Shown: positions 2,868 to 36,487, numbered from the stretch's first letter. The stretch is 64,000 bases of DNA from Candidatus Moraniibacteriota bacterium (GCA_028688415.1 JAQTYF010000001.1:144627-208626); one strand, 5' to 3'. Made by a program: numbers and translations. The notes: generated by a model from the sequence alone, not told the origin.

Positions 2868-2917
2868 TGGTTTTTTATTATAGTATATACGTATTATTAT
2901 ATAATAAATACAGAATT

Positions 2918-3472: not shown

Positions 3473-3480
3473 AATTCTTT

Positions 3481-4854: not shown

Positions 4855-6151
4855 GTTAGTAGATTTTGAATCTTTCAATTCTTTAGCAAAGCAATCACGT
4901 ATTTTGCCAAAGCGATTATGTTTGCCAGGGCAAAATGTTTCTTGGCGCATTGGAAAAGAATCATACCAATTACCTTTTTCTAATAAAATAAGAGAAAGAC
5001 TTGCCTTACTTGGGATGCTCTGTAAGAAATATCATGATGCTGTTGAGGATCTTTTTTTTCATGATACAGAATTTAGGAAAAAAGTGAATATGTATCGAGA
5101 AAAATCATTTCTCGATAATTTTAATCGAGCTAAGGATTTATCATCTGGGAATATTTTTTATCGACCAGACTTGGTTATAACAGAAGATTCACAATTTAAA
5201 ATTGCTGAAATAGATGCTCTTCCTGGGGAGTTGGGTGTCCATAGTTTTTTATTGAATGCTTATGGGAGTTCTGTAAATAAGATTGTTCAATCTTTTGAAG
5301 ATGTATTGAAAAAATTTCAACTTTCACAGAGTATAGATTTTGTTATTGATTCTATAATTTCTGAAGATGAATATGTCGCTGAGTATACGTACCTTGCGAG
5401 CTGTTTGTCCAGATCAGATATTACAATGCGTATATATAATATTAACGAATATTCTGGTCCAGAAAGAGAAGGCGTCTTGGTTTATAGATTTTTTGATATG
5501 GTACGAAATAATCAGGTACAGATACACACTATTCTTGATCGAATTAAAGAAACTAAATCATATTTGTATCCACCAATAAAACATTATCTCGAGGAGAAGT
5601 TTTCATTAAGCTGTGTACACGATAAGAATGTAGAAACAATATTTTTGCGACATTTTACAAATGAAGAGCTGTCTCTTTTTAGAGATCTTCTGCCAAAAGT
5701 TCATTATCTCGATAAACAGAGTCGATTAATTTTTCCGCCGATTCAATATAATGGTAGTTCTGTAGTAAATTTTTCAGATCTGGCTTTGTTGGCGCCAAAT
5801 ATACCATATGTTCTTAAAACGAGTGCTTTCTCAGATCAATTTTCTACATCGAAAGGGGCTATTCTCTTAGAAGGGTTGTCAAAAGAACAGATAAATAGTT
5901 TACTCGAAGAACATATAAACAAGTTTGATGAACACTTTATATTGCAAGAAAAGATTACGCCACTCATTGTTGGCGTACAAGTGGTTGATTCGAATGGCAT
6001 AAACCAAGAAGTGAGGGGATTTTCGCGACTAACTCCTTTCTATTTTGTGCAAAAGAGAAAAATTGCACTTGTATCTTCTCATATAGTAATTCGAGAGAAG
6101 AATTTTGATGTTCATTTTGCTTCAGATTCTGTTGTTATACCGGCGTATTAA
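4844..6151 (+). CDS. hypothetical protein (435 aa), possibly an amide-forming ligase; unassigned
   Basis: Long ORF in frame with coding-like composition; ATG at 4844 overlaps the upstream stop (ATGGGATATAA). No motif recognised. Confidence 0.5.
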   Translation: MGYKLVDFESFNSLAKQSRILPKRLCLPGQNVSWRIGKESYQLPFSNKIRERLALLGMLCKKYHDAVEDLFFHDTEFRKKVNMYREKSFLDNFNRAKDLSSGNIFYRPDLVITEDSQFKIAEIDALPGELGVHSFLLNAYGSSVNKIVQSFEDVLKKFQLSQSIDFVIDSIISEDEYVAEYTYLASCLSRSDITMRIYNINEYSGPEREGVLVYRFFDMVRNNQVQIHTILDRIKETKSYLYPPIKHYLEEKFSLSCVHDKNVETIFLRHFTNEELSLFRDLLPKVHYLDKQSRLIFPPIQYNGSSVVNFSDLALLAPNIPYVLKTSAFSDQFSTSKGAILLEGLSKEQINSLLEEHINKFDEHFILQEKITPLIVGVQVVDSNGINQEVRGFSRLTPFYFVQKRKIALVSSHIVIREKNFDVHFASDSVVIPAY

Positions 6152-6156
6152 GAATT

Positions 6157-6828
6157 TCAAGATTTTTGAATGATTTGAAGTATTTCGTGGAAGTTTCTGA
6201 AAAGACAGGATTTTTTTTTCCTGTCGCGTAATAGTGTGAAAAGTTTCTCTTTTGCAAAAACGGTTGAACAGTGGCGAGCTCCTTCAATATCAGAAATTCC
6301 GTCGCCTATATAGATTGTATCGTTAGGATGAATAGGGATTGTTTTGATAATATGCTTGATAATTTGTGGTTTGCAATTTGCACAGACATTATTATGAATA
6401 CAAGGATATAAATCAGAAGAATCAGATAGTGGTATAAATTTTATCATTTTTTCGGACATAAATTTTATATCATTTGCGTAGATAGAAGTGAAATATATCT
6501 TGTGAATTGTGAGGAATTGTTCGATGAGTGTATTTATTCCATCGCTTATAATAAAGAGAGGGATGCCCTTGTCTTTACAAAATTGCGAGAATTCGATAAA
6601 ACCATTTTCTAGATGCAATTTACCCGCAAGATCAAAAATATCCGTAGCGTTCATTCTAATATTAGAGAATTGTTTTATAAGGCATTCTCTACTACCGATA
6701 GTGCCAGATGACCACTGCAGTTCAATATTTTTCCAGGTGTTGTCCACGCTGAACTGATTCAGTATTAAGTCTGTACTGTCTTCTTTTGCTATTGTCCCGT
6801 CAAAATCACAGAATATAGAATGTAACAT
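6157..6828 (-). CDS. HAD-superfamily phosphatase (subfamily IB, MtnX/phosphoserine-phosphatase-like)
   Basis: N-terminal FCDFDGTI (DxDGT motif I); IGDGISD near C-terminus (motif IV GDGxxD). Confidence 0.65.
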   Translation of the reverse strand: MLHSIFCDFDGTIAKEDSTDLILNQFSVDNTWKNIELQWSSGTIGSRECLIKQFSNIRMNATDIFDLAGKLHLENGFIEFSQFCKDKGIPLFIISDGINTLIEQFLTIHKIYFTSIYANDIKFMSEKMIKFIPLSDSSDLYPCIHNNVCANCKPQIIKHIIKTIPIHPNDTIYIGDGISDIEGARHCSTVFAKEKLFTLLRDRKKKSCLFRNFHEILQIIQKS

Positions 6829-21164: not shown

Positions 21165-21835
21165 ATGTATAATCCCGAGTCATTATATGATGTTAGCGAA
21201 GAGTACATCCGAGAGAGTCAGATACTTGATTCAAAAAACAGGCCAATCTGTTTGGTTTGGGTGAACGGTCAACAATTCAATTTTTATGTTGGACCAGACG
21301 CGCATGGATTTATTTTTGAGGATGAGGAGGGCGAGTACATCAACGTTGGGAATGAGAAGAGGTGGTGGCGCGGAACATTAGAGCCAATTCCTAATATTCT
21401 GAGACCCGACAGATTGAATGAGTTTGGGTTTTGTTCTATCAAGCCGGATGCCTTTGAAAGAGGCTTGGCTGAATTCATCAGGGCAGAAATTGAGTCGATG
21501 GGACTTGAAATTATTGGAAAAAAAGCGGTGTTAATTGAAAAGTCAGAATTATTTCGGCTTTACCCGTACTTTTTTGAATCCGAGTGGGAATCAGTTTTGA
21601 TAAAGTACTTTTGCTCGGCACCAACATTGTTTATGATTCTCAGAGGCAATCAGTGACAGAAAATCTTCTCAAGCTGAGAAAAGCAATGAGACTGAAATTT
21701 AGGAAGTCTGAAGAACACCCGATTCGAAACATGTTCCATTGCTCAGATTCACAACTGGAGGCTATTCGCGAAGCGAGTATATTTTTTGGAGCAGAGGAAT
21801 TACTTAAATTGGTCGGTTGTTCCGAAGACCTGTAG
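21165..21835 (+). pseudogene. nucleoside-diphosphate-kinase-like gene with ~90-aa N-terminal extension, interrupted by a -1 frameshift near 21645-21656
   Basis: Frame A has FCSIKPDAFERGL...GLEIIGKK...YFCSAPTLFMILRG (NDK IIKPD, SGP..V.EG). Frame B has PIRNMFHCSDSQLEAIREASIFF (NDK N.IHGSDS...AxREIxxFF). The two frames overlap 21584-21656. Confidence 0.5.
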
Positions 21836-23776: not shown

Positions 23777-24130
23777 ATGGATATTGATTTAGCAAGAAAT
23801 TTTTGTAAGGAGGCATTTATAAAATTTGAATTGTGGGGCTTTTTCGACAGAAGTGGTAATGTCAAAAAGTTTTCAAATGATGTACACAAAGAAGTTGTCT
23901 ATGGATGTGAACAGCGACGGCCCTTAGAAAGGATGCATATAAATTTTAAGGGAGATGTTATTTTGTGCTGTATGGATTGGAAATGGCAGCATAAATTAGG
24001 AAATGTGAACGAGAGGTCTTTAGAAGAAATATGGAATTCTGAGATTTATAATGAATATCGTAAGTCTATTTACAATAATGGATCAGGAACACGAACAGGT
24101 CTATGTAAGAAATGCAAGTTATCGTTATGA
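23777..24130 (+). CDS. SPASM-domain-only fragment (C-terminal part of a radical-SAM maturase); possible gene remnant
   Basis: CEQRRPLERMHINFKGDVILCCMDWKWQHKLGNVNERSLEEIWNSEIY...GLCKKCK matches the SPASM pattern (C..G.v.pC...lGNi...sl.eIW...C..C). No radical-SAM core upstream. Confidence 0.45.
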   Translation: MDIDLARNFCKEAFIKFELWGFFDRSGNVKKFSNDVHKEVVYGCEQRRPLERMHINFKGDVILCCMDWKWQHKLGNVNERSLEEIWNSEIYNEYRKSIYNNGSGTRTGLCKKCKLSL

Positions 24131-24768
24131 TGATTTCATTTGATGGCAATGTTTATGTGGGAAAAACGACTTTAATTAAGTCATTATCTCAGAGATATGG
24201 TTTTTCTACCATTGATGAACACTCTTTTTTTATTAATGATATTCAACAGAAAGATTATTATGAGAATGAGTATGTTAACACGCAGGCACGATATCTTGAT
24301 GTAGATATCCAGAGAGGAAAACTTCTTAGAAATGGCATCAATCTTTTAGACAGGAGTTTTGTTTCTGTAAGTGCCCATGTTTATGCTATTTATAAATTGG
24401 GGTTGGTTGATATAAGAAGTTCATATCTTGAACTCTTGGTATCTAAGGTGGGGGAAATATTAATACCAGACATATTCGTTTTTGTAAGTTGTGAGTATGA
24501 GACTTCGCGTGCAAGATGTTTTGAGAGTGGTAATAGAAAACAAACGGGGGATTTATATCTTTCCGAACAATATTTCAGGTTCGTGAAAATATTTAATGTT
24601 AATTTTATCTCGATGGTTAATGGCCATGTTATTGATACAGAGAGCATCTTTACGGATACATCGTGTGTTGATATGTACAATCGAATTGTTCTCAATTCAA
24701 GAAATAAAAAAATAACAAAAGACACAGTAGCGATGATTGATAACATTCGAAACTGTCTTGATCTATAA
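24112..24768 (+). CDS. P-loop kinase, deoxynucleoside/nucleotide-kinase-like
   Basis: Walker A FDGNVYVGKTTLIKSL; LLDRSFVS resembles the dNK/dGK ERS motif. Confidence 0.5.
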   Translation: MQVIVMMISFDGNVYVGKTTLIKSLSQRYGFSTIDEHSFFINDIQQKDYYENEYVNTQARYLDVDIQRGKLLRNGINLLDRSFVSVSAHVYAIYKLGLVDIRSSYLELLVSKVGEILIPDIFVFVSCEYETSRARCFESGNRKQTGDLYLSEQYFRFVKIFNVNFISMVNGHVIDTESIFTDTSCVDMYNRIVLNSRNKKITKDTVAMIDNIRNCLDL

Positions 24769-24861
24769 GGATTTATAATAGAAACTGTTGCTATTATAAT
24801 GCTTTTGTGATATAAATGTATGTTACCAAGTTTGAAGTAACAATTGAACTTTACCAATTGA

Positions 24862-26145
24862 ATGAAGGAGAAAATCATGAGTATAACCTTTGGACTTGAT
24901 TTTGGAACTACGAACTCTGTTTTGGCAATTTTGCAAAATGGCCAAGTAAAAGTTGCGAGTATTGATCCGAGCGGGGCTGTAGAAGAAACCCTGAAATCAG
25001 TTCTTTTCTTCGACGAAGAAAATTATGTGGCCGTTGGTCAAGAGGCTATCAACCAATACGTTGGTTACGGTGGTGTGTACGGTCGCTTCATGCAGTCGAT
25101 TAAGGCGTTTTTGCCAAACAAAAGTTTCACTGAGACATATGTTTTTGGTAAGCGTTACGAGATTGAAGATCTGATAGCCTTAATTTTGAAAGCTATCAAA
25201 CATCATGGTGAGCTTTATGTCGGTCACGTTGTGGACACAGTAATGATGGGACGTCCTGTTATTTTTTCGGAGGACAAGGAGTTAGATCTTTTGGCCGAAG
25301 AAAGATTGCGAGCCGCCGCCCTGCGTTCTGGGTTTACGAATATCCATTTCGTATATGAGCCTATTGCTGCTACGCTTGCTTACGAATCACAACTCAAGTC
25401 AGGTGAGGAAAAACTTGTTCTTATGGGTGATTTTGGTGGTGGCACCTCGGATTTTGTTGTTATGCGTCTTTGCGGCCGTGACACGCCGAAAAACAATCGG
25501 AAGGATGATATTCTCTCCATTGGGGGGGTGTATATTGCTGGTGATGCTTTCGATGCTTCTATCATGTGGCACAAAATAGCTAAACACTTCGGCAAAGGGG
25601 CAAAAGTCTATGGTGCCTCGAATCGTCAAATTCTTGATATGCCGATTTGGATTCCGCAGACACTTTGTCGGTGGCATATGATTCCGCAGCTTCGTAGCAA
25701 GAAAACACTTCAGATTATCCAATCTCTTCATGGTGTATCTGACGAAGATCGGAAGGCTTTGGAGAATCTGCGTACGCTCATTATGGAAAATCTTGGGTAC
25801 TTGCTGTTTAGGGCCATTGAAAAAGCGAAGCGGGAGTTGTCTGATAACGAATCTGCCATTATTGAATTTTCCGAGAAGGGGGTTGTAATTCACGAGGAAA
25901 TTACAAGGGAGGAATTTGAAATCATGGCTGACGATAACTTTCAGAAGATTAACGCTTGTGTAGATGAAACATTGGTTCGCGCAGGCGTGTCTTTGTCAGA
26001 TATCGATACCGTCCTGTTGACCGGCGGGTCATCGTTTATTCCAAGAATCCGAAGAATTTTTTCGAGTAAATTCGGAGAGGAAAAAATAATATCGATTGAT
26101 GCGTTTATGAGCGTAGCCTATGGGCTCGGCCTCTGCGCATCATAG
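24862..26145 (+). CDS. Hsp70-family ATPase, nucleotide-binding domain only (YegD-like)
   Basis: FGLDFGTTNS (phosphate 1), GDFGGGTSDF (phosphate 2), LLTGGSSFIPRIRR (adenosine motif); no substrate-binding domain. Confidence 0.65.
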   Translation: MKEKIMSITFGLDFGTTNSVLAILQNGQVKVASIDPSGAVEETLKSVLFFDEENYVAVGQEAINQYVGYGGVYGRFMQSIKAFLPNKSFTETYVFGKRYEIEDLIALILKAIKHHGELYVGHVVDTVMMGRPVIFSEDKELDLLAEERLRAAALRSGFTNIHFVYEPIAATLAYESQLKSGEEKLVLMGDFGGGTSDFVVMRLCGRDTPKNNRKDDILSIGGVYIAGDAFDASIMWHKIAKHFGKGAKVYGASNRQILDMPIWIPQTLCRWHMIPQLRSKKTLQIIQSLHGVSDEDRKALENLRTLIMENLGYLLFRAIEKAKRELSDNESAIIEFSEKGVVIHEEITREEFEIMADDNFQKINACVDETLVRAGVSLSDIDTVLLTGGSSFIPRIRRIFSSKFGEEKIISIDAFMSVAYGLGLCAS

Positions 26146-26161
26146 TGCTGATTTCTGTTTG

Positions 26162-26199
26162 AGTCTTGGTTGTTGTAATAATGACCAAGACTTTTTTTA
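26162..26199 (+). terminator. rho-independent terminator
   Basis: agtcttggt...accaagact hairpin followed by TTTTTTT. Confidence 0.6.
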
Positions 26200-26263
26200 T
26201 GATTTGAGTTATGGTAGAATGATATATTATTGATTCGTTGTTTTTAATTTAATCGTATGAAAG

Positions 26264-26389
26264 ATGGATCGTATCATCGTCATCGAAGATGGAAAAATTG
26301 TCGAGTCTGGTTCACACAAAGAACTCATTGCCAAACAAGGAAGTTATTGTCATTTCTGGCAACAGCAAACTGACGGATTTATTGAATAA
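26264..26389 (+). pseudogene. remnant encoding the last 41 aa of an ABC exporter ATPase (MsbA-like C-terminus)
   Basis: [41 protein letters not shown] matches the characteristic ABC exporter tail (DRIxVxxxGxIxExGTHxELLxxxGxYxxLxxxQ). In-frame stop immediately upstream; no NBD or TMD present. Confidence 0.55.
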
Positions 26390-26461
26390 AAATAGGATGC
26401 TTGTTTTTCGGAAGCCTTTTTGTTATGATAAAGTTATATTTAAGCCATTGTCATAACATCT

Positions 26462-27871
26462 ATGGAAGCCAAGAAACGTGTTCTCATCGCTGAAGCATCA
26501 AAATATATTGGAAAAGAGGTGAAACTGTCTGGTTGGATAGATGTACGCCGTGATCATGGTAAACTCATCTTTCTCGATTTGCGCGATATGAGCGGTAAAG
26601 TGCAGATGGTAGTCCTCCCGAATCATCCAGAGGCCATAGCAGTCGCACAGACCCTCCGTTCTGAGTGGGTGGTGGAAATAGTAGGGAGTGTGAATCCTCG
26701 CCCAGAGAAACTTGTGAATAGCGAGCAGGAGAATGGTGCTATCGAAATAGAAGTGCTCTCGGTGACTGTTCTCAATACTGCCGAGACACCAGCATTCGAT
26801 GTGTCTTCTGATGGCAAAGAAATCAGTGAAGAACTCCGTCTCAAATATCGCTATCTCGATTTGCGTCGTGATCGGATGCAGAAGAATATGCGGAACCGTC
26901 ATCTCGTGACGAATTTCGTCCGCAATTTCTATACCCAAGAAGGATTCGTAGAAATCGAAACGCCCAATATGACCAAGTCGACTCCGGAAGGATCACGTGA
27001 CTATATCGTTCCTTCTCGTATTGATAAAGGAAAATTCTATGCCTTGCCACAATCCCCACAACAGTACAAGCAACTGCTGATGGCCGCTGGTTTCGAGAGA
27101 TATTTCCAAGTGGCTCGCTGTTTCCGTGATGAAGATACCCGCGGTGATCGTCAGCCAGAGTTCACGCAGATTGATATGGAAATGAGTTTCGTCACGCAGG
27201 AGGATGTGATGCAGATCAACGAAAAACTCATCACAGAATTGGTACAAAAAATCTATCCCGAGAAAAAAATCCAGGAACTTCCTTTTCCACGTTTGACATA
27301 CCAAGAAGCAATGGAGAAATATGGCTCAGACAAACCAGATATCCGTACCGATAAGAATGATCCAAATCTTCTTGCTTTTTGTTGGGTGATAGACTTTCCT
27401 TTTTTTGAGAAAGATGATAAAGGTGGCTGGACATTTACACACAATCCATTCTCCGCTCCGAAACCTGAGTTTATGAATGACTTGATGGAGAAGAAAAACA
27501 TCGAAAGTATCGGAGCAGCACAATATGATATGGTACTCAATGGCTACGAAATCGGTGGTGGAGGAATACGAAATCATAACCCGGAAGCTCTCAAAAAAGT
27601 GTTTGAAGTGATGGGATATTCCGCCGAAAGAATTGAGAAAAATTTTCATCATATGCTCGAGGCTCTCGCTTCGGGGACACCACCGCACGGAGGACTGGCA
27701 TTCGGATTTGATCGATTGATGATGCTCCTTCAGAATGAACCGAACATTCGTGAAGTTATTCCTTTTGCAAAAACTGGTGAAGGACGTGATCCAATGATGG
27801 AATCACCATCCGAAGTCTCTCTTGACCAGCTCATCGAACTCGGCCTCCGTATCACGAAAGAAGAGAAGTAG
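26462..27871 (+). CDS. aspS: aspartyl-tRNA synthetase, bacterial type lacking the GAD insertion domain
   Basis: Class II motifs: FVEIETP, QSPQQYKQLLM, FRDEDTRGDRQPEFTQIDMEMSF, GGGGIRNHN; 469 aa. Confidence 0.9.
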   Translation: MEAKKRVLIAEASKYIGKEVKLSGWIDVRRDHGKLIFLDLRDMSGKVQMVVLPNHPEAIAVAQTLRSEWVVEIVGSVNPRPEKLVNSEQENGAIEIEVLSVTVLNTAETPAFDVSSDGKEISEELRLKYRYLDLRRDRMQKNMRNRHLVTNFVRNFYTQEGFVEIETPNMTKSTPEGSRDYIVPSRIDKGKFYALPQSPQQYKQLLMAAGFERYFQVARCFRDEDTRGDRQPEFTQIDMEMSFVTQEDVMQINEKLITELVQKIYPEKKIQELPFPRLTYQEAMEKYGSDKPDIRTDKNDPNLLAFCWVIDFPFFEKDDKGGWTFTHNPFSAPKPEFMNDLMEKKNIESIGAAQYDMVLNGYEIGGGGIRNHNPEALKKVFEVMGYSAERIEKNFHHMLEALASGTPPHGGLAFGFDRLMMLLQNEPNIREVIPFAKTGEGRDPMMESPSEVSLDQLIELGLRITKEEK

Positions 27872-27895
27872 TTTCGGCTCTTAAAGAGAATCTTT

Positions 27896-28633
27896 ATGAA
27901 GACTATCGTCGCTATTGGAGGAGGGGAAATAGGAGAATTGGAAACTCTCTCTATTGATCGTGCGATTGTGAAACTTACAAAAAAGGATCATCCGAATGTG
28001 CTTTTCATCCCAACGGCGAGTAGCGATTCTACTGGATATGCAGAAACTTTTCAGAAAGTGTACGGGAAGAAACTCGGTTGCGATATCGATGTCCTCTATC
28101 TTTTGAAAGAAAAACTTTCTAAAAAAGAAATTGAGAAGAAAATTCTCTCAGCTGATATTATTTATGTCGGCGGTGGAAACACGCTCCGGATGATGAAAGC
28201 TTGGCGAAAAAATGGTGTGGATGGATTGCTCAGAAAAGCTCATAAAAAAGGGATAATTTTGGCAGGTCTCAGTGCAGGATCCATTTGTTGGTTCCGTTAT
28301 GGATCGAGCGATGCTCGGAGATTTGCAAATCCGAAAGATACTTCTTTTATGCGGGTACGTGGTCTTGGTATCATTCCACTGACTGTCAGCCCACACCATA
28401 TTCGCGAGAAAAAACTCCGAGATGCTGGATTGGTAAAATTGATAAAGAGAACTCCTGGTATCGGACTTGCTCTTGATGATTATACAGCGATTCTTATTCA
28501 AGATGATCGATACGAGATATTGAAATCAAAAAAAGATGTTGGAATCGTCAAAGTGTTCCGGAATAAGGGAAAGATAGAACAGATTCCTCTCAAATCATCA
28601 GGAACACTCGTGGAATTATTGGAGAAGAAATAA
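27896..28633 (+). CDS. peptidase E / S51 family (cyanophycinase-like dipeptidase)
   Basis: VGGGNT...ILAGLSAGSICW (Ser nucleophile context) and overall ~240-aa organisation. Confidence 0.65.
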   Translation: MKTIVAIGGGEIGELETLSIDRAIVKLTKKDHPNVLFIPTASSDSTGYAETFQKVYGKKLGCDIDVLYLLKEKLSKKEIEKKILSADIIYVGGGNTLRMMKAWRKNGVDGLLRKAHKKGIILAGLSAGSICWFRYGSSDARRFANPKDTSFMRVRGLGIIPLTVSPHHIREKKLRDAGLVKLIKRTPGIGLALDDYTAILIQDDRYEILKSKKDVGIVKVFRNKGKIEQIPLKSSGTLVELLEKK

Positions 28634-28637
28634 ATAT

Positions 28638-29213
28638 ATGAATATCGAATATGAAGCGACGTTTCCTGATATTGAGAAGGAAGAGATGCGTCTTATATTA
28701 GAAAAATCAGGGGCGACGCTGATACGACCAGAGTTTCTTCAGAAGCGAGTCGTATTTGCTCTCCCGACAGGACATGAAATCACAGGTGGGTGGGCGCGTG
28801 TACGTAATGAGGGAAACAAAATAACGATGAGTCTCAAAATAGTCGATGGAGACAAGATCGAGAATCAACGAGAGATCTGTCTGACTGTCGATAGTTTCGA
28901 GCAAGCAGAACTGTTTCTCACCACTATCGGATGCAGGAAGAAGTCATACCAAGAAACCAAGAGAGAATTGTGGATGATGGGTGACACCGAAATCACTATC
29001 GATGAATGGCCTTTTCTCCGACCGTTTCTGGAAATTGAAGGGAAGTCTGAGGAGGTTGTGAAACAAGTGACAGAGAAACTTGGTTTGGATTATAGAGAGG
29101 CGCTTTTTGGCGCAGTCGATATCATCTACATACATCAGTATCCCCATCTCACTTTTGATCGTATCAACAAGACGCCTCGTATCGTATTTGAAGGTGAGAA
29201 TCCTTTTTTATGA
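28638..29213 (+). CDS. CYTH-domain protein (triphosphate tunnel metalloenzyme / class IV adenylate-cyclase-like)
   Basis: N-terminal IEYEATF (ExExK-type start), REICLTVD, LEIEG acidic beta-strand pattern. Confidence 0.5.
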   Translation: MNIEYEATFPDIEKEEMRLILEKSGATLIRPEFLQKRVVFALPTGHEITGGWARVRNEGNKITMSLKIVDGDKIENQREICLTVDSFEQAELFLTTIGCRKKSYQETKRELWMMGDTEITIDEWPFLRPFLEIEGKSEEVVKQVTEKLGLDYREALFGAVDIIYIHQYPHLTFDRINKTPRIVFEGENPFL

Positions 29214-29557
29214 AAAACTATGCGACGAAATTCATCGGGAGTATAGTTGATATACAAATCGACAGACCTCTGGGTTCGAAACATCCAAAACACGGATTTG
29301 TGTACGAAGTGAATTACGGATTTGTTCCTGATACTCTGGCACCAGATGGAGAAGAAATCGACGCGTATTTCCTCGGAATAAACGAACCCGTAGAGAAACA
29401 GAAGGGGAAATGTATCGCTGTTATCCATCGGACCAATGATGACGATGATAAACTCGTCATGATCCCTCAGTCGATGAATGATATGAGTGATGAAGATATC
29501 GAAAAGCTCACCCATTTCCAAGAGCAGTTTTTCACATCAGAAATAGTGAGGAAATAA
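29210..29557 (+). CDS. inorganic-pyrophosphatase-like mini protein (N-terminally truncated family I PPase fold)
   Basis: EVNYGFVPDTLAPDGEEIDAYFLG aligns to PPase NYGFIPQTLxxDGDPLDVLV; TNDDDDKLV aligns to TDEAGEDAKL. Lacks the first ~50 aa that carry several catalytic residues. Confidence 0.45.
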   Translation: MKNYATKFIGSIVDIQIDRPLGSKHPKHGFVYEVNYGFVPDTLAPDGEEIDAYFLGINEPVEKQKGKCIAVIHRTNDDDDKLVMIPQSMNDMSDEDIEKLTHFQEQFFTSEIVRK

Positions 29558-29563
29558 ATCTCA

Positions 29564-30499
29564 GTGAATCTATCGATAATTATGAATAATTCAGATTTTC
29601 AGACAAGACTGTGTGGTCGTATTGAAGAGAAACTTAAAATACGAATTGTCGATATGCACATTCCTCCACAAGGAATGTCGAGCAAAGTATTTTTTGTGAA
29701 ATCTGATACAGAGAAGAAATACGCTATTAAATACGGCAATGACGTAACGAAAGATGTTTCTGCTTTGAAATTGATTATGAAGGAGGGTATTGATATCCCT
29801 GTTCCACGATTGTATGCGTCATTCCTTTTTGAAGAAACTCCCATAATTATTCTAGAAAAAATAAACTTTCCTTTGCTAGAATCGGTCTCAAAAGATCAAA
29901 TGCCAAAGTACATTCCATCGATGATTGGAAACTTGAGGAAATTGCATTCAATAAAATTTGATAGATCAGGGTCGCTCATTGATTCAAAAAGTGAAAAATC
30001 GTGGAAGGAGATGTTGTCCGCGATATTTGATGGTGATGAATTTGATTGGAATGAAATTGCCAAGCGAGAAGGGCTCGATACGGAGTTGGTCCTGTCATCA
30101 GTGGAAAAAATAAGAGAAAAAATAAACAACACGGTTTTTGAAGAAGGAAATTATTCTCTTCTTCATACGGATTTTAATCAGAGAAATTTATTTGTTGATC
30201 CGAAAAGTGATGAAATAACAGGAATTATTGATTGGGAGGAGGCTTTATTTGGTGACCCTCTCTATGATTTTGCTCGAGTACGTATGTTTATGTGGCATTT
30301 TGGCTTTGATAACTCGTCTATTCAAGCCTACTATGATTTGATGAACTATACAGATGAACAGAAAGCGCTCGAAAATCTATATCGGCTTGTCCTGGTTATT
30401 CAGTATCTCGCATGGTATTCTGAAGATCTAAGTGAGTTTGCTCGAGGAAGAATCAAATTGCATCAGGATTATTTGCGGACGTATAATTGGGAAAAATAG
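29564..30499 (+). CDS. aminoglycoside-phosphotransferase-like kinase (APH/ChoK fold)
   Basis: LLHTDFNQRNLFVD (HxDxxxxN) and GIIDWEEALFGDPLYD (DWE). Confidence 0.6.
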   Translation: MNLSIIMNNSDFQTRLCGRIEEKLKIRIVDMHIPPQGMSSKVFFVKSDTEKKYAIKYGNDVTKDVSALKLIMKEGIDIPVPRLYASFLFEETPIIILEKINFPLLESVSKDQMPKYIPSMIGNLRKLHSIKFDRSGSLIDSKSEKSWKEMLSAIFDGDEFDWNEIAKREGLDTELVLSSVEKIREKINNTVFEEGNYSLLHTDFNQRNLFVDPKSDEITGIIDWEEALFGDPLYDFARVRMFMWHFGFDNSSIQAYYDLMNYTDEQKALENLYRLVLVIQYLAWYSEDLSEFARGRIKLHQDYLRTYNWEK

Positions 30500-30990
30500 A
30501 AATGGAAAATATGATTATTTTTGTAAATGGATCAATAAATTCTGGGAAAAGTACGGTGGCAAAGTTACTTGCTTTGAAATTGCCTAGAACAGCTTTGCTC
30601 GAGATTGATGCATTATGTGAATGTATCGCATGGATGCCTCTTGCAGAGGCGATTCCTATCAATTTAGAAAATGCCATTTCTGTGATTAAAAATTTTGTAA
30701 AAAGGGATATAAATGTTGTTGTTCCTTATCCTCTTTCACAAAAGAATTATGATTTTCTTATTCAGGAATTGAAATTATTGAATCAAGATATTTTTGTTTT
30801 TACTCTGAATCCGCCACTAGAAATAGCTTTAACGAACAGAGGAGAACGAGAACTGACCGTAGAAGAGCAAGAAAGAATCAAATATCATTATGAAATCGGA
30901 ATCAATAAGCCAAACTTTGGTACAATTATTGATAACTCCAAACAAACACCAGAAGAAACAGTTGGAATAATTATGAAATCTATTGTATGA
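30487..30990 (+). CDS. small P-loop kinase (chloramphenicol-phosphotransferase-like / AAA_33-type)
   Basis: Walker A VNGSINSGKSTVAKLL; ~165 aa. Confidence 0.5.
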   Translation: MGKIEMENMIIFVNGSINSGKSTVAKLLALKLPRTALLEIDALCECIAWMPLAEAIPINLENAISVIKNFVKRDINVVVPYPLSQKNYDFLIQELKLLNQDIFVFTLNPPLEIALTNRGERELTVEEQERIKYHYEIGINKPNFGTIIDNSKQTPEETVGIIMKSIV

Positions 30991-31694
30991 AAAAGTATCC
31001 AGAAGTGACACTTGTGATTGATGTAGAAAAAGATATTGAGAACGCTACTTATTTTCTGAAGTATGAAAAGAATCAATTCTTTCGAGACTGCTTTTTTCGT
31101 GGCGATTTGAATTTTATTTTGAGTGAAAAGTTTTCGAAGAAGGAACAGGGAAAAGTTATCGAAGCATACGTACGAAATTTCTTCAAAGAACATAAGAAAG
31201 AAATCGAAAAAGGACTACTTCTCGTAAAGCGAGACTGGAAAAAGAAAGAAAAGAAATATCTCGCGCTTATCGAGAAGATGTTCCGTGGACGTAAATGGCT
31301 AGAAGGGGAATATAGAGGTATTGTAAGTATTTTCAGGATGTATCCCAGGTGGATAGAACAAAAAACATTTTTCTTTCCTTATGCCCACCAGAAACCAGGA
31401 TTTGCAAACGGTGTCATCGCGCACGAGATGCTTCATTTTTTCTTCTTTGATTATATCTTTGAGAAGTATGGCCTCAAAGAGGGTTCAAAAATAAAAGGAA
31501 AAGAATCAGACTATATCTGGAAAGTTTCAGAAGTATTCAATGTTGTGATGGAAAATTGGAAGCCGTATACGGATATCATCGGACGTGCAGGGAAGCCGTA
31601 TCCTGGACAAGAGAAAATGTATAAAAAAATGCAGAAGCAATGGTTTAAAAATCAGGATATTGATTGGTTACTCGATCAGTGGCTTCAGAAATAG
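30987..31694 (+). CDS. hypothetical protein with HExxH motif (possible zinc metallohydrolase)
   Basis: VIAHEMLHFFF contains HEMLH. Confidence 0.4.
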   Translation: MKKYPEVTLVIDVEKDIENATYFLKYEKNQFFRDCFFRGDLNFILSEKFSKKEQGKVIEAYVRNFFKEHKKEIEKGLLLVKRDWKKKEKKYLALIEKMFRGRKWLEGEYRGIVSIFRMYPRWIEQKTFFFPYAHQKPGFANGVIAHEMLHFFFFDYIFEKYGLKEGSKIKGKESDYIWKVSEVFNVVMENWKPYTDIIGRAGKPYPGQEKMYKKMQKQWFKNQDIDWLLDQWLQK

Positions 31695-31756
31695 AAAAAA
31701 ATCCCTCGGTACAGTTTTGTACACGAGGGATGTTTCTTGATGGAGGTGAAACGAGA

Positions 31757-32359
31757 TCAATGGCTCAGATGTATCTGAACGGGAATGAATTGATCAGCCC
31801 CTTTACGCTTGATCGTTGTTGCGGTGAGCCTCTCGAAATATTCTTTTCCAAATATCTTGTCGAGCCGTTCTTCCAGGTAGACCTTGCGAATGGTCGCAAA
31901 TACCTTTCGGAACCCACCCGTTTTGGCGTAGGTGTATACGGCCAAGTGAAGGGCGAAGAACACGAGCTTACTCCCAGATGTATTGATCATCCGAGAAATT
32001 TCGATGGCATCCCGAGGGATGGCTATCTGCTCAAATTGACTCAATCCTTCTTCCATAGGGAGGGGATTGCCGAGCAAGAGTTTTTTGTGGATGATACGAC
32101 ATCCAGCCACCGCTCGATCACCCTTCATCACAACAATGAAGATTGATGCGAGGTCGTAGCGATCCCGCTCCTCACCCCGTGGTTCTTCCCAATGATGCTT
32201 CTTGGCGAAGACATCATCACGAAGCTCATAAAAGAGCTTTGCTAGTTTCCGATCCCTTGGTGCGACCGGATTGACACGGATGATCCTCATTCCCAAAAGG
32301 ACGAGAATCATAGCCAGTATCTTGCTGATAGTCACAAATGACCCAATGAAGAATTTCAC
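31757..32359 (-). CDS. LuxI-family acyltransferase (autoinducer-synthase / N-acyl amino acid synthase-like GNAT)
   Basis: LRDDVFAKKHHWEEPRGEERDRYD fits LuxI block RxxVFxxxxGWxx(n)ExDxYD; AGCRII and EISR also conserved. Likely start at MRIIRV (32290). ~50% GC. Confidence 0.5.
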   Translation of the reverse strand: MKFFIGSFVTISKILAMILVLLGMRIIRVNPVAPRDRKLAKLFYELRDDVFAKKHHWEEPRGEERDRYDLASIFIVVMKGDRAVAGCRIIHKKLLLGNPLPMEEGLSQFEQIAIPRDAIEISRMINTSGSKLVFFALHLAVYTYAKTGGFRKVFATIRKVYLEERLDKIFGKEYFERLTATTIKRKGADQFIPVQIHLSH

Positions 32360-32562
32360 GATTTCACCTCCAGGTTGTTAAAGTACTAAACCATACATTA
32401 TACACCAAAAACGCATAAAAGTCAAGTCTTTTTTCATGCGGAAAGAAGGGAAAATATGACACATAAACGTTCTTTTTCTGTAGGGGGTTGCTTAAATATC
32501 GTGTTTGAGATAAGATAATTCAAGTACCGAAGAGGCATATAATAGATTAGAAGATTAGCGTT

Positions 32563-33003
32563 ATGAAAGTGATACTTTTGCAGGATGTAGAAAAATTGGG
32601 AAAAGCAGGGGAAATCAAAGAAGTGCGTAGTGGATACGGATTCAATTTCTTGTTGCCTGAGGGACTGGCAGAGTTTGCTACCCCAACAGCTATCAAAGAA
32701 ACGGAAAAAATGGTCGCAAGACAGAAGAAAGAGACTGAATCAATGCTCGCAGTGTCCAAAGAAACTGCGGGAGCATTGGCAGGCAAGAAAATAACTATCA
32801 AGACCAAGGCAGAAAATGGAAAACTGTTTGGTTCTATTGGTCGTGAAGAAATCGCTTTGGCACTGGAAGCAGCTGGTACAAAGATCGATGCCAAGCACAT
32901 CGTTCTCGAAAAAGGTTTCAAGGAAGTTGGTGTATTTACTGTCGAAGCTCATTTCGGACATGGAGTGAAAGCTTCTTTTGAAGTGACGATCAAGTCAGAA
33001 TAG
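32563..33003 (+). CDS. rplI: 50S ribosomal protein L9
   Basis: MKVILLQDVEKLGKAGEIKEVRSGYGFNFLLPEG, the classic L9 N-terminus. Confidence 0.9.
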   Translation: MKVILLQDVEKLGKAGEIKEVRSGYGFNFLLPEGLAEFATPTAIKETEKMVARQKKETESMLAVSKETAGALAGKKITIKTKAENGKLFGSIGREEIALALEAAGTKIDAKHIVLEKGFKEVGVFTVEAHFGHGVKASFEVTIKSE

Positions 33004-33096: not shown

Positions 33097-34749
33097 ATGG
33101 CAAAACAAACAAAGAAGACGAAGTATATTTTTGTGGTAGGTGGAGTGATGAGTGGTGTCGGAAAAGGTATTACCACTTCTTCTATCGGAAAAATCTTGCA
33201 GTCGCGTGGTCTCTCTGTAACAGCATTCAAGATCGATCCGTATATCAATGTCGATGCTGGAACGATGAATCCAACAGAGCACGGTGAAGTGTTCGTCCTC
33301 AAAGATGGCTATGAAACGGATCAGGATATGGGGAATTATGAGCGTTTCCTCAATATTGAGCTGAACCGAGACCACTATATGACGACAGGAATGGTCTACA
33401 AGTCAGTGATCGAACGTGAACGCAATCTCGAATACGCTGGCAAATGTGTCCAGGTCGTGCCTCATATCCCTCTCGAAGTCATATCTCGTATCAAGAAAAC
33501 CGCCAAGAAAGACAATGCTGATGTGGCTATCATCGAAATCGGAGGGACAGTTGGAGAATACGAAAACATTCTATTTTTAGAGGCAATTCGGATGATGAAA
33601 ATCGCCAGTCCGAAAGATGTTGCAACAGTGATGGTGAGTTTCATACCGACTCCATCGACGATTGGTGAAATGAAGACCAAGCCGACACAGCACGCCGTTC
33701 GGACGCTCAACGGTGCTGGTGTACAGGCAGATATCATCGTGGCTCGTGCCAGTCGACCGCTCGATGAGAAGCGCAAAGAAAAAATCGCTGTTTTCTGCAG
33801 TGTCCGGAAGGAGGATGTCATCAGTGCTCCAGATATAGAGAGTATTTATGACGTGCCACTCAATTTTGAAAAAGACCATCTCGGTATTATTCTTCTCGCA
33901 AAACTCGGACTGAAAACGAAGAAGCGAACACAAGATTTGAAAGAATGGGAGAAGGTGGTAGAGCGTATCCATCATGCGACTGACGCAGTCCATATTGGTG
34001 TCGTAGGGAAATATTTCAAGACAGGGGACTATGTACTGAGTGATGCCTATATCAGCGTCATCGAATCACTGAAACATGCTGCCTGCCAGATCGGCAAGAA
34101 AGCAGTACTTACGTGGATCGACAGTACCGATTTCGAAGAAAATGCTGGGGCTTTGTCAGGACTGAAACAGTATGATGGCATTATCATCCCGGGAGGTTTT
34201 GGTACACGTGGTGTCGAAGGAAAAATCGCGGTAGTAGAATATTGTCGCGAAAACAAAATCCCATATTTTGGGTTGTGTTATGGTATGCAACTCCTCGTGG
34301 TGGAATATGCTCGTCATATCCTCGATCTTGCAGATGCACACACGACCGAAGTCGCACCACAGACCAAGAATCCTGTTGTCGACATCATGCCCGAGCAGAA
34401 AGAGAATATGCGAAAGAAAAACTATGGTGCGACGATGCGTCTCGGACAGTATCTGGCGCATATCGTTCCGAAAACTATTGCGAGAGAGTCCTACGGTACC
34501 GATATGATACTTGAGCGTCATCGTCATCGCTATGAGGTCAATCCTGCTTATGTGGCGTCACTTCAAGAAGCAGGGCTCATCTTCTCTGCGACGTCTCCAG
34601 ACGGTGTGCTGATGGAAATAGCAGAACTTCCCAAGAAGCAACATCCATTTTTCCTCGCCACGCAGTTTCATCCAGAGTTCCAGTCTTCTCTCCTCCATCC
34701 TCATCCTTTGTTTGTTGCTTTTCTCAAAGCATGTATCAAGAAGAAATAA
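33097..34749 (+). CDS. pyrG: CTP synthase
   Basis: KYIFVVGGVMSGVGKGITTSSIG...DPYINVDAGTMNP...GNYERFL; glutaminase domain GLCYGMQ; 550 aa. Confidence 0.95.
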   Translation: MAKQTKKTKYIFVVGGVMSGVGKGITTSSIGKILQSRGLSVTAFKIDPYINVDAGTMNPTEHGEVFVLKDGYETDQDMGNYERFLNIELNRDHYMTTGMVYKSVIERERNLEYAGKCVQVVPHIPLEVISRIKKTAKKDNADVAIIEIGGTVGEYENILFLEAIRMMKIASPKDVATVMVSFIPTPSTIGEMKTKPTQHAVRTLNGAGVQADIIVARASRPLDEKRKEKIAVFCSVRKEDVISAPDIESIYDVPLNFEKDHLGIILLAKLGLKTKKRTQDLKEWEKVVERIHHATDAVHIGVVGKYFKTGDYVLSDAYISVIESLKHAACQIGKKAVLTWIDSTDFEENAGALSGLKQYDGIIIPGGFGTRGVEGKIAVVEYCRENKIPYFGLCYGMQLLVVEYARHILDLADAHTTEVAPQTKNPVVDIMPEQKENMRKKNYGATMRLGQYLAHIVPKTIARESYGTDMILERHRHRYEVNPAYVASLQEAGLIFSATSPDGVLMEIAELPKKQHPFFLATQFHPEFQSSLLHPHPLFVAFLKACIKKK

Positions 34750-34768
34750 AAAAATATACAATCCATAT

Positions 34769-36487
34769 ATGTCAAAAAACATACGGAATTTTATCGGAGT
34801 ATTGTTCCTGAGTTTTTTCATCTTCTCGCCGTCAGTACAGGCACGAGAGAATGTGACGGATTGGTATGTGAAAGATTTTCGGGAAGAATTTGTCCTTTCG
34901 ACTGATTCTACAATGACGGTGACAGAATGGATTACGGCAGATTGTGGTCAGGCAATCGGAAAACATGGTATTTTTCGTGTGGTTCCGACGAAAACAACAC
35001 TCGTTTCAGGAGAGATCATCGATCATCCTGTGACACTTATCGGTATCACGGATTTCCAGGGACATCCTTACAAATTTGAGACCACAAACGATCGAAGCAA
35101 CGGAACGGTTACCTGGAAGATTGGTGACAAAGAAAGAACGGTTACTGGAGAGAATACATACAAAATTGTTTATACAGTAGAAAATATCATTCGATTTTCG
35201 AATCAGGCATTCGACGAATTCTACTGGAATGTTGTCGGAAATTTCTGGGTCATGGATATCGATGCTTTCGAGGCAACGATCATTTTTCCTGAAACAATCA
35301 AACAAGATGTTATTAATCTCTCATATTATACCGGAATGCGTGGATCCAAAGATTCTCGTCTCGTACGGTCTTCTTGGAAAAATGACCACTCACTTTCTCT
35401 GATAGCGAACCAATCATTTGCCCCGGGCAACGGTGTCACTCTCTCTGCGAGCGTACCAAAGAATCTTTTTGTTCCGTACCAGTTTGGTTTCTGGAAATTG
35501 TACGGTGAATATTTCTGGCTTTTCCTCCCTCTTTCTGTTTTTCTTTTCTGTTACCGTCTTTGGAGAAAGTATGGCGATGATCCGACGTGGAATAAGGTTG
35601 TCATACCGGAATATGAAATGCCAGAAAATTTGGGCGTGTTTGAGATGGGGATGCTTATGGATAATGGCATTTTCGATAATAAGTTCGTAACAGCAAGTAT
35701 CATCGAACTTGCAGTGAAGGGGGCTCTCAAAATACAAGAACAAGAGAATAAGATTCTTTTCTTTACAATAAAAGAGTTCGTGTTGGAGAAACAACCAACA
35801 GCAGGAATCACTCTTCATTCGTATCAAAAAATTCTTTTTGATACACTCTTCAAATCTGGTGATCAAGTGAAGCTTTCATCGCTCAAAAATACATTTTATC
35901 AAGCACTGGATATTCTGCAAAAAACAGTGATTCATTCACTGACAACAAAAGGACTTATCGAGAAGAAAGGACTTTCATATCGGACATGGTTCGTGATGGG
36001 AGGAGCATTTCTTTTTGTAATTTTTTATGGAGCGTTTTCTGGTCTAGCTCTTTTTTCTGGAATTGCAAGTGGTGTTCTTTTGATTTTTTTTGCAAGAATT
36101 ATGCCGAAGCGAACAGAAAAAGGAGTGGAAGTAAACTGGAGGATCCAAGGTCTGAAATTGTACATGAACACAGCAGAGAAACATCGACAACAATTTTACG
36201 AAAAAGAAAATATCTTTGAAACACTGCTTCCATGTGCCATCGCTTTCGGTATGACCAAAGAGTGGGTCAAAAAAATGCAAGATATCTATGGTGAAACATA
36301 TTTCTCAGAGTATCATCCGGCATGGTTTGTTTCGAGTACTATCGGAAATTTTGATGTAGAGAGTTTTCATTCCTCTCTCGCAACACTCTCATCGAGTATC
36401 GCTTCGAATACAGGCGGTTCTTCGGGATCAGGGGGATCGGGTTCTTCAGGCGGAGGAAGTGGTGGTGGAGGCGGTGGAGGATGGTAA
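34769..36487 (+). CDS. DUF2207-like membrane protein with signal peptide and C-terminal Gly/Ser-rich tail
   Basis: Signal-like MSKNIRNFIGVLFLSFFIFSPSVQA; TM segments mid-protein; tail GGSSGSGGSGSSGGGSGGGGGGGW. Confidence 0.55.
   Translation: MSKNIRNFIGVLFLSFFIFSPSVQARENVTDWYVKDFREEFVLSTDSTMTVTEWITADCGQAIGKHGIFRVVPTKTTLVSGEIIDHPVTLIGITDFQGHPYKFETTNDRSNGTVTWKIGDKERTVTGENTYKIVYTVENIIRFSNQAFDEFYWNVVGNFWVMDIDAFEATIIFPETIKQDVINLSYYTGMRGSKDSRLVRSSWKNDHSLSLIANQSFAPGNGVTLSASVPKNLFVPYQFGFWKLYGEYFWLFLPLSVFLFCYRLWRKYGDDPTWNKVVIPEYEMPENLGVFEMGMLMDNGIFDNKFVTASIIELAVKGALKIQEQENKILFFTIKEFVLEKQPTAGITLHSYQKILFDTLFKSGDQVKLSSLKNTFYQALDILQKTVIHSLTTKGLIEKKGLSYRTWFVMGGAFLFVIFYGAFSGLALFSGIASGVLLIFFARIMPKRTEKGVEVNWRIQGLKLYMNTAEKHRQQFYEKENIFETLLPCAIAFGMTKEWVKKMQDIYGETYFSEYHPAWFVSSTIGNFDVESFHSSLATLSSSIASNTGGSSGSGGSGSSGGGSGGGGGGGW

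Follow-up and report, generated by a model that had tools for sequence, protein, structure and literature searches.

A conserved short pyrophosphatase-fold protein in a variable gene patch of a Moranbacteria genome

Introduction

Type I 'InPase' domains that lack the β-hairpin of solved pyrophosphatases (PPases) were described by Iyer, Burroughs, Anand, de Souza and Aravind in 2017 (J Bacteriol, PMC5512222). In that paper, 'related InPase domains' adjoin or are fused with NUDIX, GNAT and TmrB domains, and two functions are proposed, the processing of nucleotide-like substrates or the clearing of inhibitory pyrophosphate (PPi). Here we report on a 64,000-nt stretch of DNA, referred to as the window, from a Candidatus Moraniibacteriota bacterium (GCA_028688415.1, JAQTYF010000001.1:144627-208626), in which an earlier note, made from the sequence alone, had drawn attention to five neighboring genes at positions 28638–31694. 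These encode a CYTH (triphosphate-tunnel) enzyme, a 115-aa PPase-fold protein, an APH-fold kinase, a CPT-like P-loop kinase and an HExxH protein. The 115-aa protein, here called the mini-PPase, belongs to a family that fits the 'related' InPase clade; the family is thus one already noticed, with a new member at this locus.

The likeness to InPase comprises a PPase OB-fold core without the extra β-hairpin, conserved acidic metal ligands and shared NUDIX, GNAT and TmrB/CPT-like P-loop partners. InPase domains occur in phage polyvalent proteins, whereas the mini-PPase is cellular, mostly stand-alone and, here, encoded in a chromosome of the candidate phyla radiation (CPR). It misses the cut-off of the InPase model PF18823 (13.7 versus 26.8 bits), and its S51/S66, APH and CYTH partners find no mention in the available text of PMC5512222. 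For a characterized short PPase, a NUDIX–PPase fusion or CPR-specific PPase work, literature searches turned up nothing beyond that paper.

A second point of comparison is provided by plant TTM1 and TTM2, in which a uridine/cytidine-kinase-like P-loop domain is fused to a CYTH tunnel domain and for which weak pyrophosphatase activity was reported; the tunnel domain of AtTTM1 is catalytically dead and regulatory (PMC9582702). Common to both systems is a nucleoside-kinase-like P-loop domain combined with a polyphosphate- or PPi-binding module, here by fusion (P0444, L069 and L046, see below) or by proximity, with CYTH nearby. However, the partner is a tunnel domain in the plant proteins and an OB-fold PPase here, the mini-PPase keeps its metal ligands and there is no homology past the P-loop class. 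House-cleaning nucleoside triphosphate (NTP) pyrophosphatases of the NUDIX/MutT, Ham1/RdgB and Maf families release PPi, the natural substrate of PPases. They are the commonest neighbors or fusion partners of the mini-PPase and the P-loop kinase but are absent from the window's own block and connected to it through family-wide context only. Lastly, antibiotic kinases resemble the two kinases of the block in fold and catalytic motifs (APH(4)-Ia, Mph and APH(9) for the APH gene; CPT, TmrB and Gar for the P-loop gene), whereas the scores of both proteins lie far below every curated resistance-family cut-off.

The mini-PPase is a complete protein of a conserved family

The mini-PPase reached the PPase profile PF00719 with 37 bits (cut-off 23.5), covering positions 31–111 of 153. 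Homologs numbered 3754, with 58–87% identity among those examined; the best 120 measured 104–144 aa, nearly all of them 112–131 aa. An exhaustive search of 1.84 billion cluster representatives returned 183 at E ≤ 1e-30 and 1194 at E ≤ 1e-10. The family spans CPR, Clostridia, Alphaproteobacteria, Poribacteria and DPANN, with hosts including Moranbacteria, Paceibacteria, Saccharibacteria, Gracilibacteria, gut Clostridia and Alphaproteobacteria from metagenome-assembled genomes (MAGs), a Woesearchaeote and others. Phages hardly carry the family, with one IMG/VR locus and 5 of 50,697 phage records containing a relative, and the mini-PPase had no match in PHROGs. Among 25 diverse family members, 29 alignment columns were invariant. 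The AF2 model (pLDDT 94.7) comprises five barrel strands, one helix and a short final strand, and all 50 PDB matches listed by Foldseek were family I PPases, with query TM-scores mostly between 0.6 and 0.72. The protein corresponds to the central PPase core without ~35 N-terminal residues and without the C-terminal strand and helix B region. The earlier note had raised the possibility of a non-conserved fragment; given the conserved family and the confident model, the 115-aa open reading frame (ORF) is instead complete and highly conserved. That note had correctly described the N-terminal catalytic residues as gone and Asp ligands as kept, while its placement of the protein in the 'C-terminal two thirds' of the fold was wrong because the C-terminus is trimmed too.

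Escherichia coli Ppa, at about 175 aa, served as the reference for the active site, whose ~14 conserved polar residues are E20, K29, E31, R43, Y51, Y55, D65, D67, D70, D97, D102, K104, Y141 and K142. Sequence and profile alignments matched mini-PPase Y32, N35 and Y36 to Y51, N54 and Y55, and D46, E48 and D51 to D65, D67 and D70, with D67 replaced by Glu. D77, D79 and D80 correspond to the D97/D102 loop, which is two residues shorter, K81 to K104 and D18-R19 to D42-R43. Apart from fold and PF00719 membership, the two proteins thus have in common the equivalents of R43, Y51, Y55, D65, D70, D97/D102 and K104. By contrast, the E20/K29/E31 region and helix B are missing. Positions 1–17 of the mini-PPase hold no conserved charged residue, so E20, K29 and E31 have no equivalent, and Y141/K142 became F107/F108 in a manual alignment of the helix (HFQEQFF versus HFFEHYK). 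The extra β-hairpin of canonical PPases is also missing, as HMM (hidden Markov model) alignments place D18-R19 on D42-R43 with nothing matching residues 20–33. While the full family I active site is incomplete, the mini-PPase gained the invariant residues S23-K24-H25-P26 and H73-R74 as well as a nearly invariant K27. The NCBIfam equivalog model for bacterial Ppa, NF002317, gave 30.4 bits, below its cut-off of 200.

The genome has two PPase-fold genes, the other being a canonical ppa 26 kb upstream of the mini-PPase (Table 1). The E. coli Ppa sequence matched it in tblastn (E = 1.5e-20), its PF00719 match extends over profile positions 2–153 of 153 and its translation displays all of the classical motifs VEIS, NKYEY, VDRV, FYPINY, DKDPLD, IDNGEIDHK and FFELYK. 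The mini-PPase is a second PPase-fold paralog and, with the canonical enzyme present, not the housekeeping PPase. Its very high conservation and the annotation 'inorganic diphosphatase', commonly given to the family in CPR MAGs, might suggest a housekeeping PPase in minimal form. Yet the window encodes a fully equipped Ppa, the mini-PPase lacks E20, K29, E31, Y141 and K142, its gene is deleted in a close relative (L088, below) and the family also occurs in large genomes, such as those of Poribacteria. We regard a housekeeping role as highly improbable, an explanation largely refuted once the canonical Ppa turned up in the window.

Fusions and neighbors indicate a loose enzyme guild

Genomic context was studied in 80 mini-PPase-centered loci from GTDB species genomes. 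Counted with HMMs built from the loci, NUDIX genes made up 25 of the 297 genes within two positions of the mini-PPase versus 17 of 695 farther away (odds ratio 3.7, p = 5e-5), and 12 of the 80 loci carried a NUDIX–mini-PPase fusion. Pfam domains in 124 direct neighbors included NUDIX (14), GNAT (8) and S66 (4). Most of the 150 most diverse mini-PPase representatives were multidomain proteins, with NUDIX (22), GNAT (11), AAA_33 (6) and AAA_18 (3) as partners, followed by GrpB, Zeta-like and glyoxalase domains (2 each), LigT-type domains (2–3) and single cases of S51, APH, HAD and Pol-beta nucleotidyltransferase (NTase). Fusions found in individual loci, some recognized by motif only, are listed in Table 1. 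In the 288-aa protein P0444, the N-terminal 159 residues are 65% identical to the window's P-loop kinase and the C-terminal part is a mini-PPase; its gene is flanked by an S66 peptidase and a NUDIX gene. A link between the mini-PPase and the kinases and peptidase of the block is thus borne out by fusions with a P-loop ortholog (P0444), APH and S51.

Within 5.5 kb, locus L171 of a distant Patescibacterium contains relatives of the window's APH (47% identity), CYTH (39%), P-loop (67%) and mini-PPase (59%) proteins together with S66, S51, NUDIX and an NTase-like gene (Table 1), and makes the strongest case that the guild recurs. Further recurrences were seen in L013, L007, L168, L172, L174 and L176. 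In seven P-loop-centered loci, NUDIX was nearby in all seven, with GNAT, S66, APH, Ham1, ASCH, His_Phos_1, PNP_UDP and HD_4 variously present. In L176 the P-loop gene has an APH neighbor as well, but this APH protein shares just 21% identity with that of the window, and the adjacency therefore links families, not orthologs. As to whether the five genes co-occur elsewhere, which the earlier note had named as a check, partial and reshuffled sets exist in distant Patescibacteria (L171, L013 and L007) but no conserved unit.

Close relatives reveal a variable patch behind AspRS–CYTH

Among close Moranbacteria relatives, the genes for aspartyl-tRNA synthetase (AspRS) and CYTH form the only constant pair. 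L081 (85–87% nucleotide identity) has the order response regulator–AspRS–S66 peptidase–CYTH–mini-PPase–NUDIX, with the S66 peptidase in the S51 slot and without S51, APH, P-loop or HExxH genes. L085 (68–74%) has response regulator–AspRS–CYTH–HExxH–MreB and lacks S51. For L088 (about 80%), the blastn alignment covers AspRS, S51 and CYTH, breaks off after window position 29238 and starts again at 32484, where L9 and CTP synthase follow. Comparing L088 5513–5700 with window positions 29150–29300 and 32400–32570 located the scar, where the first ~10 mini-PPase codons (MKNYATKFIG) are retained and followed directly by the L9 upstream region. L088 thus carries a clean 3.2-kb deletion of the mini-PPase, APH, P-loop, HExxH and GNAT genes; its S51 gene is split into ORFs of 98 and 162 aa. 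The notion of a fixed five-gene module does not survive these comparisons, as relatives at 68–87% nucleotide identity miss different subsets and one bears a deletion scar. The block is an ordinary, lineage-specific mosaic rather than a dedicated pathway operon. It could quite plausibly represent, at evenly balanced confidence, a plasticity zone behind an AspRS–CYTH backbone in Moranbacteria, whose small stand-alone enzymes come, go and replace one another. The series formed by the window, L081, L085 and L088 offers a clean example of gene-by-gene flux in such a CPR zone.

GC content falls from AspRS (0.45), CYTH (0.44; 0.436) and mini-PPase (0.41) to APH (0.36; 0.358), P-loop (0.32; 0.319) and HExxH (0.36), which agrees with a mosaic; the CYTH value resembles that of core genes. 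The junctions between the five genes measure −4, +6, −13 (+11 with the NCBI start of the P-loop gene) and −4 nt. Since 14 of the 46 co-directional junctions in the window (30%) are ≤10 nt, five consecutive tight junctions are denser than usual but nothing extraordinary for such genomes. These observations, along with a different gene subset in every close relative and the near absence of the other block genes from CYTH-centered loci (76 metagenome loci, 57–85% identity), would also fit pure juxtaposition, in which unrelated dispensable genes share a recombination- and deletion-prone zone and tight spacing reflects streamlining without any shared function. We consider this rather unlikely in view of the independent mini-PPase fusions with NUDIX, GNAT, P-loop kinase, S51 and APH, the significantly enriched NUDIX adjacency and the reappearance of CYTH, APH, P-loop, mini-PPase and S51 in another order and orientation in L171.

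A candidate auxiliary pyrophosphate-bond hydrolase

The reading that we prefer, with confidence at about the midpoint, combines the plasticity zone with a loose enzyme guild around the mini-PPase as an auxiliary pyrophosphate-bond hydrolase. Members of the guild would be NUDIX (most frequent), GNAT, S51/S66 peptidases, CPT-like P-loop and APH-fold kinases and CYTH, occasionally joined by Ham1, Maf and nucleotidyltransferases. That the Asp cluster and the Lys/Arg/Tyr set are kept speaks for metal-dependent P–O–P hydrolysis, and the loss of K29, E31, Y141 and K142 with gain of the SKHPK and HR motifs argues for a remodeled leaving-group site. The mini-PPase may thus be an Mg2+-dependent hydrolase with an altered leaving-group pocket that clears PPi, or cleaves a substituted pyrophosphate, made or handled by neighboring NUDIX, Ham1, Maf, NTase or CYTH enzymes. 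As these dominant partners release or handle PPi, an auxiliary PPase that pulls their reactions would be the simplest model. Physiologically, it would belong to the house-cleaning and salvage of nucleotides, or to the detoxification of compounds resembling them, in a scavenging organism.

Several points weigh against this proposal. Five of the ~14 classical active-site residues are gone, which leaves PPi activity uncertain, the canonical Ppa already removes PPi and literature searches gave no biochemical report on any mini-PPase family member. Because kinases and GNATs release no PPi, 'PPi clearing' leaves their fusions unexplained. NUDIX genes are multi-copy in these genomes, inflating raw counts, and the other guild partners each appear in only a few to about 10% of loci. 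Among the 80 mini-PPase loci, CYTH was found 8 times, S51 7, S66 5 and APH once, and conversely 1 of the 76 CYTH loci contained a mini-PPase. Small accessory genes may also accumulate together in compact CPR genomes anyway. It is for the unexplained kinase and GNAT fusions and the presence of a canonical Ppa that we keep our confidence in an auxiliary hydrolase no higher than about even.

A bolder version, which we put forward tentatively and consider doubtful as a whole, would make the mini-PPase an enzyme class of its own and the smallest PPase-fold hydrolase, acting on a pyrophosphate-containing nucleotide-like compound instead of free PPi and as a portable helper subunit or domain for NUDIX, GNAT and kinases within a conserved but fluid guild for nucleotide sanitation or nucleoside-antibiotic detoxification, especially important in scavenging CPR and reduced gut lineages. 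The five-gene 'module' is no discovery in itself but a pointer to this family, which is very conserved, promiscuously fused and annotated 'inorganic diphosphatase', yet has only two thirds of the canonical active site and exists alongside a genuine Ppa. Identifying its substrate would put thousands of annotations right and establish the minimal catalytic core of the PPase fold. It would also explain the partnership with NUDIX, GNAT and small kinases, with bearing on how ultra-small symbionts salvage and sanitize nucleotides.

CYTH and the mini-PPase are rarely paired

The CYTH protein exceeded the PF01928 cut-off (28.8 versus 23.2 bits) and remained below that of the CyaB class IV adenylate cyclase equivalog TIGR00318 (36.3 versus 57.95 bits). 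Invariant residues are E4, E6, R54, R56, E79, R109, E110, E118, D122, E132 and E134. In the N-terminal ExExK motif, E4 and E6 are present, while the Lys is Thr in the window clade and Lys in L085 and L007. From these residues, the enzyme is probably catalytically competent.

The earlier note had singled out the position of a mini-PPase next to CYTH, and a two-step triphosphate pathway (PPPi or NTP to PPi to 2 Pi, where PPPi is inorganic triphosphate and Pi phosphate) would account for it. Consistent with such a pathway, CYTH has a full tunnel residue set, a 4-nt overlap of the two genes in the window and L081 suggests translational coupling, and the genes are adjacent in L007, L008 and L013 and separated by one ORF in L012. 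The wider samples point the other way. CYTH genes represented 4 of 297 genes within two positions of the mini-PPase and 4 of 695 farther away (p = 0.25), with adjacency in about 4–5 of the 80 mini-PPase loci. None of the 76 CYTH loci showed adjacency, the single mini-PPase among them lying elsewhere within 5 kb. CYTH is kept without mini-PPase in the relatives L085 and L088, was not fused to it in any of the 80 loci and, of the 62 Pfam partner families counted for the 150 representatives, is not one of the 25 most frequent. The pairing is therefore rare and not significantly enriched rather than special, and we judge the two-step pathway very unlikely.

Two kinases and an HExxH protein

Profile searches upheld the earlier CYTH, PPase and APH domain calls; the P-loop kinase came close to the CPT model PF07931 (20.1 bits, cut-off 22), which many of its orthologs of 63–70% identity carry as a precomputed annotation. 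The APH-fold protein matched PF01636 with 70.7 bits and has the catalytic motifs HTDFNQRN (HxDxxxxN) and IIDWEE (DxD). Its nearest relatives of solved structure, at E = 1e-7 to 1e-4, are hygromycin, macrolide and spectinomycin kinases, with hygromycin B 4-O-kinase as the best PDB match (E = 8e-8). The protein stayed far below the cut-offs of all curated resistance families, with APH(3') the best at 29.3 versus 205 bits and others lower. The P-loop kinase, with Walker A sequence GSINSGKST, has 687 homologs, the best 120 listed being about 159 aa long and 63–70% identical. It matched the phage family phrog_761 'thymidylate kinase' with E = 7e-9 and Gar/GrdA with 21 bits (cut-off 170).

These kinases bear on whether the block is an antibiotic or xenobiotic patch, in which APH, the CPT/TmrB/Gar-like kinase and GNAT inactivate foreign molecules (aminoglycosides, macrolides or nucleoside and aminoacyl-nucleotide antibiotics), the S51/S66 peptidases act in an MccF-like manner and the mini-PPase processes a nucleotide-like moiety. 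The earlier note had considered a cassette of two unrelated antibiotic-modifying kinases, and the folds do fit, given the PDB relatives of APH and the best NCBIfam and Pfam matches of the P-loop protein (Gar/GrdA and CPT). Moreover, several mini-PPase partners (GNAT, APH, Pol-beta NTase/GrpB, CPT-like, glyoxalase/bleomycin-resistance fold and S66) resemble resistance folds, and TmrB neighbors are noted by Iyer et al. (PMC5512222). Directly upstream of the block's S51 gene lies that for AspRS. AspRS is the target of microcin-C-type compounds. However, no resistance-family cut-off was reached, the P-loop protein scored better on the phage 'thymidylate kinase' family, the neighbors Ham1, Maf, PNP_UDP, ASCH and TMK indicate nucleotide metabolism and no mobile-element signatures were seen. 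An antibiotic patch appears unlikely to us.

The HExxH protein belongs to a family of 57 homologs (P0121–P0177), whose organism-named members are all Patescibacteria/CPR. Invariant HEMLH at 146–150 (H146, E147 and H150) and E182 form a gluzincin-like signature. Pfam, NCBIfam and PDB sequence searches gave zero matches, and Foldseek comparison of the AF2 model (pLDDT 94.8) with PDB and BFVD yielded no significant match, only weak similarity to M1 aminopeptidase cores (E about 0.8, TM-scores 0.26–0.3). No kinship with a neighboring DUF2268 protein was found (hhalign probability 0.2). We therefore regard this as a putative metallohydrolase family without a Pfam model. The gene showed no consistent link to other block genes. 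We think it about as likely as not that both kinases and the HExxH protein belong, each independently, to the same accessory pool.

Locus organization and neighboring features

All five genes were found on the plus strand with overlapping or abutting ends, as first reported, within a co-directional run of ten genes at 23777–31694 (Table 1). The NCBI model of the P-loop gene uses the later start, and the P-loop and HExxH proteins are identical to PHH40_00795 and PHH40_00800 over 159 and 235 residues, respectively. AspRS follows a 316-nt gap and is separated by 24 nt from S51, which ends 4 nt before CYTH, so that the tightly packed run begins upstream of the five genes. The hairpin at 26161–26193 is a probable upstream boundary of the transcription unit and that at 31701–31731 a probable bidirectional terminator; since they flank the run, AspRS–S51–CYTH–mini-PPase–APH–P-loop–HExxH is probably one transcription unit.

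Table 1. Coordinates of window features and composition of mini-PPase loci in other genomes (double colons, fusions; hyphens, gene order)
Feature	Location	Strand	Remarks
Canonical full-length family I Ppa	2846–3472, probable start 2918	+	PF00719, 157 bits
Terminator-like hairpin after Hsp70-like gene	26161–26193	+	15-bp stem, then T run
AspRS, constant backbone gene	26462–27871	+	syntenic with CYTH in L081, L085, L088
S51-family serine peptidase (PepE/cyanophycinase-like), variable slot	27896–28633	+	PF03575, 163 bits
CYTH/triphosphate-tunnel metalloenzyme	28638–29213	+	191 aa; PF01928
Mini family-I-PPase-fold protein (hairpin-less, InPase-like)	29210–29557	+	115 aa; PF00719
APH-fold small-molecule kinase	29564–30499	+	311 aa; PF01636
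CPT/TmrB-like P-loop kinase	30487–30990	+	167 aa; probable true start 30511, giving 159 aa
HExxH...E (gluzincin-like) protein	30987–31694	+	235 aa; motif, no Pfam model
Stable hairpin between convergent HExxH and GNAT genes	31701–31731		−21.8 kcal/mol, z = −5.07, 0/200 shuffles equally stable
GNAT-type acyltransferase (autoinducer-synthase/exosortase-acyltransferase-like), convergent with block	31757–32359	−	PF00765, E = 1e-4; TIGR03694, E = 7e-7
Segment with mini-PPase, APH, P-loop, HExxH, GNAT, missing in L088	29239–32483		3.2 kb
NUDIX::mini-PPase	L010		genome locus
Mini-PPase::NUDIXx2	L045		genome locus
P-loop::mini-PPase	L069, L046		genome loci
Mini-PPase::P-loop	L050, L062		genome loci
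S51::mini-PPase(::C39)	L023, L067		genome loci; S51::mini-PPase::C39 peptidase at L023 7356–8837
Mini-PPase::glyoxalase	L064		genome locus
Pol-beta NTase::mini-PPase	P0178		Pfam
Pol-beta NTase::mini-PPase	L007 7158–7886		motif only; similar N-terminal extension in L009
Mini-PPase with ParB-like (DGLHRL) tail	L041 1731–2483		motif only
Transglutaminase-like N-domain::mini-PPase	L057 7500–8351		motif only
APH(−), CYTH, S66, P-loop, NTase-like 194-aa ORF, NUDIX::mini-PPase, S51	L171 (GCA_018971045.1, JAGWVF010000003.1) 1239–6565		5.5 kb
S51-CYTH-APH-mini-PPase	L013		
S51-CYTH-NTase::mini-PPase-NUDIX-Maf	L007		

Three other origins of the block were considered and rejected. An integron-like cassette array does not fit genes that overlap or abut (−13 to +6 nt), as this leaves no space for attC sites. 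PADLOC gave no match to an anti-phage defense system for the five genes, S51 or GNAT, and the search for a phage origin with PHROGs returned the weak 'thymidylate kinase' match of the P-loop protein only.

Side observations concern the surroundings of the block. Upstream, a 427-aa Hsp70/YegD-like ATPase (24862–26145, +) is encoded with B12-radical-SAM and SPASM genes, and the same combination lies no more than a few kb from the mini-PPase in L003, L006, L052, L074, L076 and L082–L084 from CPR and DPANN. A dNK/thymidylate-kinase-like P-loop gene at 24112–24768 (+, GC 0.32) has a 19-nt overlap with the end of the radical-SAM/SPASM gene and matches the PADLOC candidate model VakA (E = 2e-8) and phrog_761. 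Downstream, a DUF2207 membrane protein with a long Gly/Ser tail (34712–36487, +) is absent at the syntenic position in L088. Positions 1–24000 of the window have mostly lower GC content (0.30–0.39; 0.42 at 8–10 kb) than the rest (about 0.40–0.45; 0.37 at 30–32 kb), which suggests that the first ~24 kb are compositionally distinct. This part includes a nucleoside diphosphate kinase (NDK)-like gene apparently split by a frameshift into 21165–21656 (NDK profile positions 4–77) and, in another frame, 21584–21835 (+) with the catalytic-His motif NMFHCSDS; the split could reflect a pseudogene, an assembly error or recoding.

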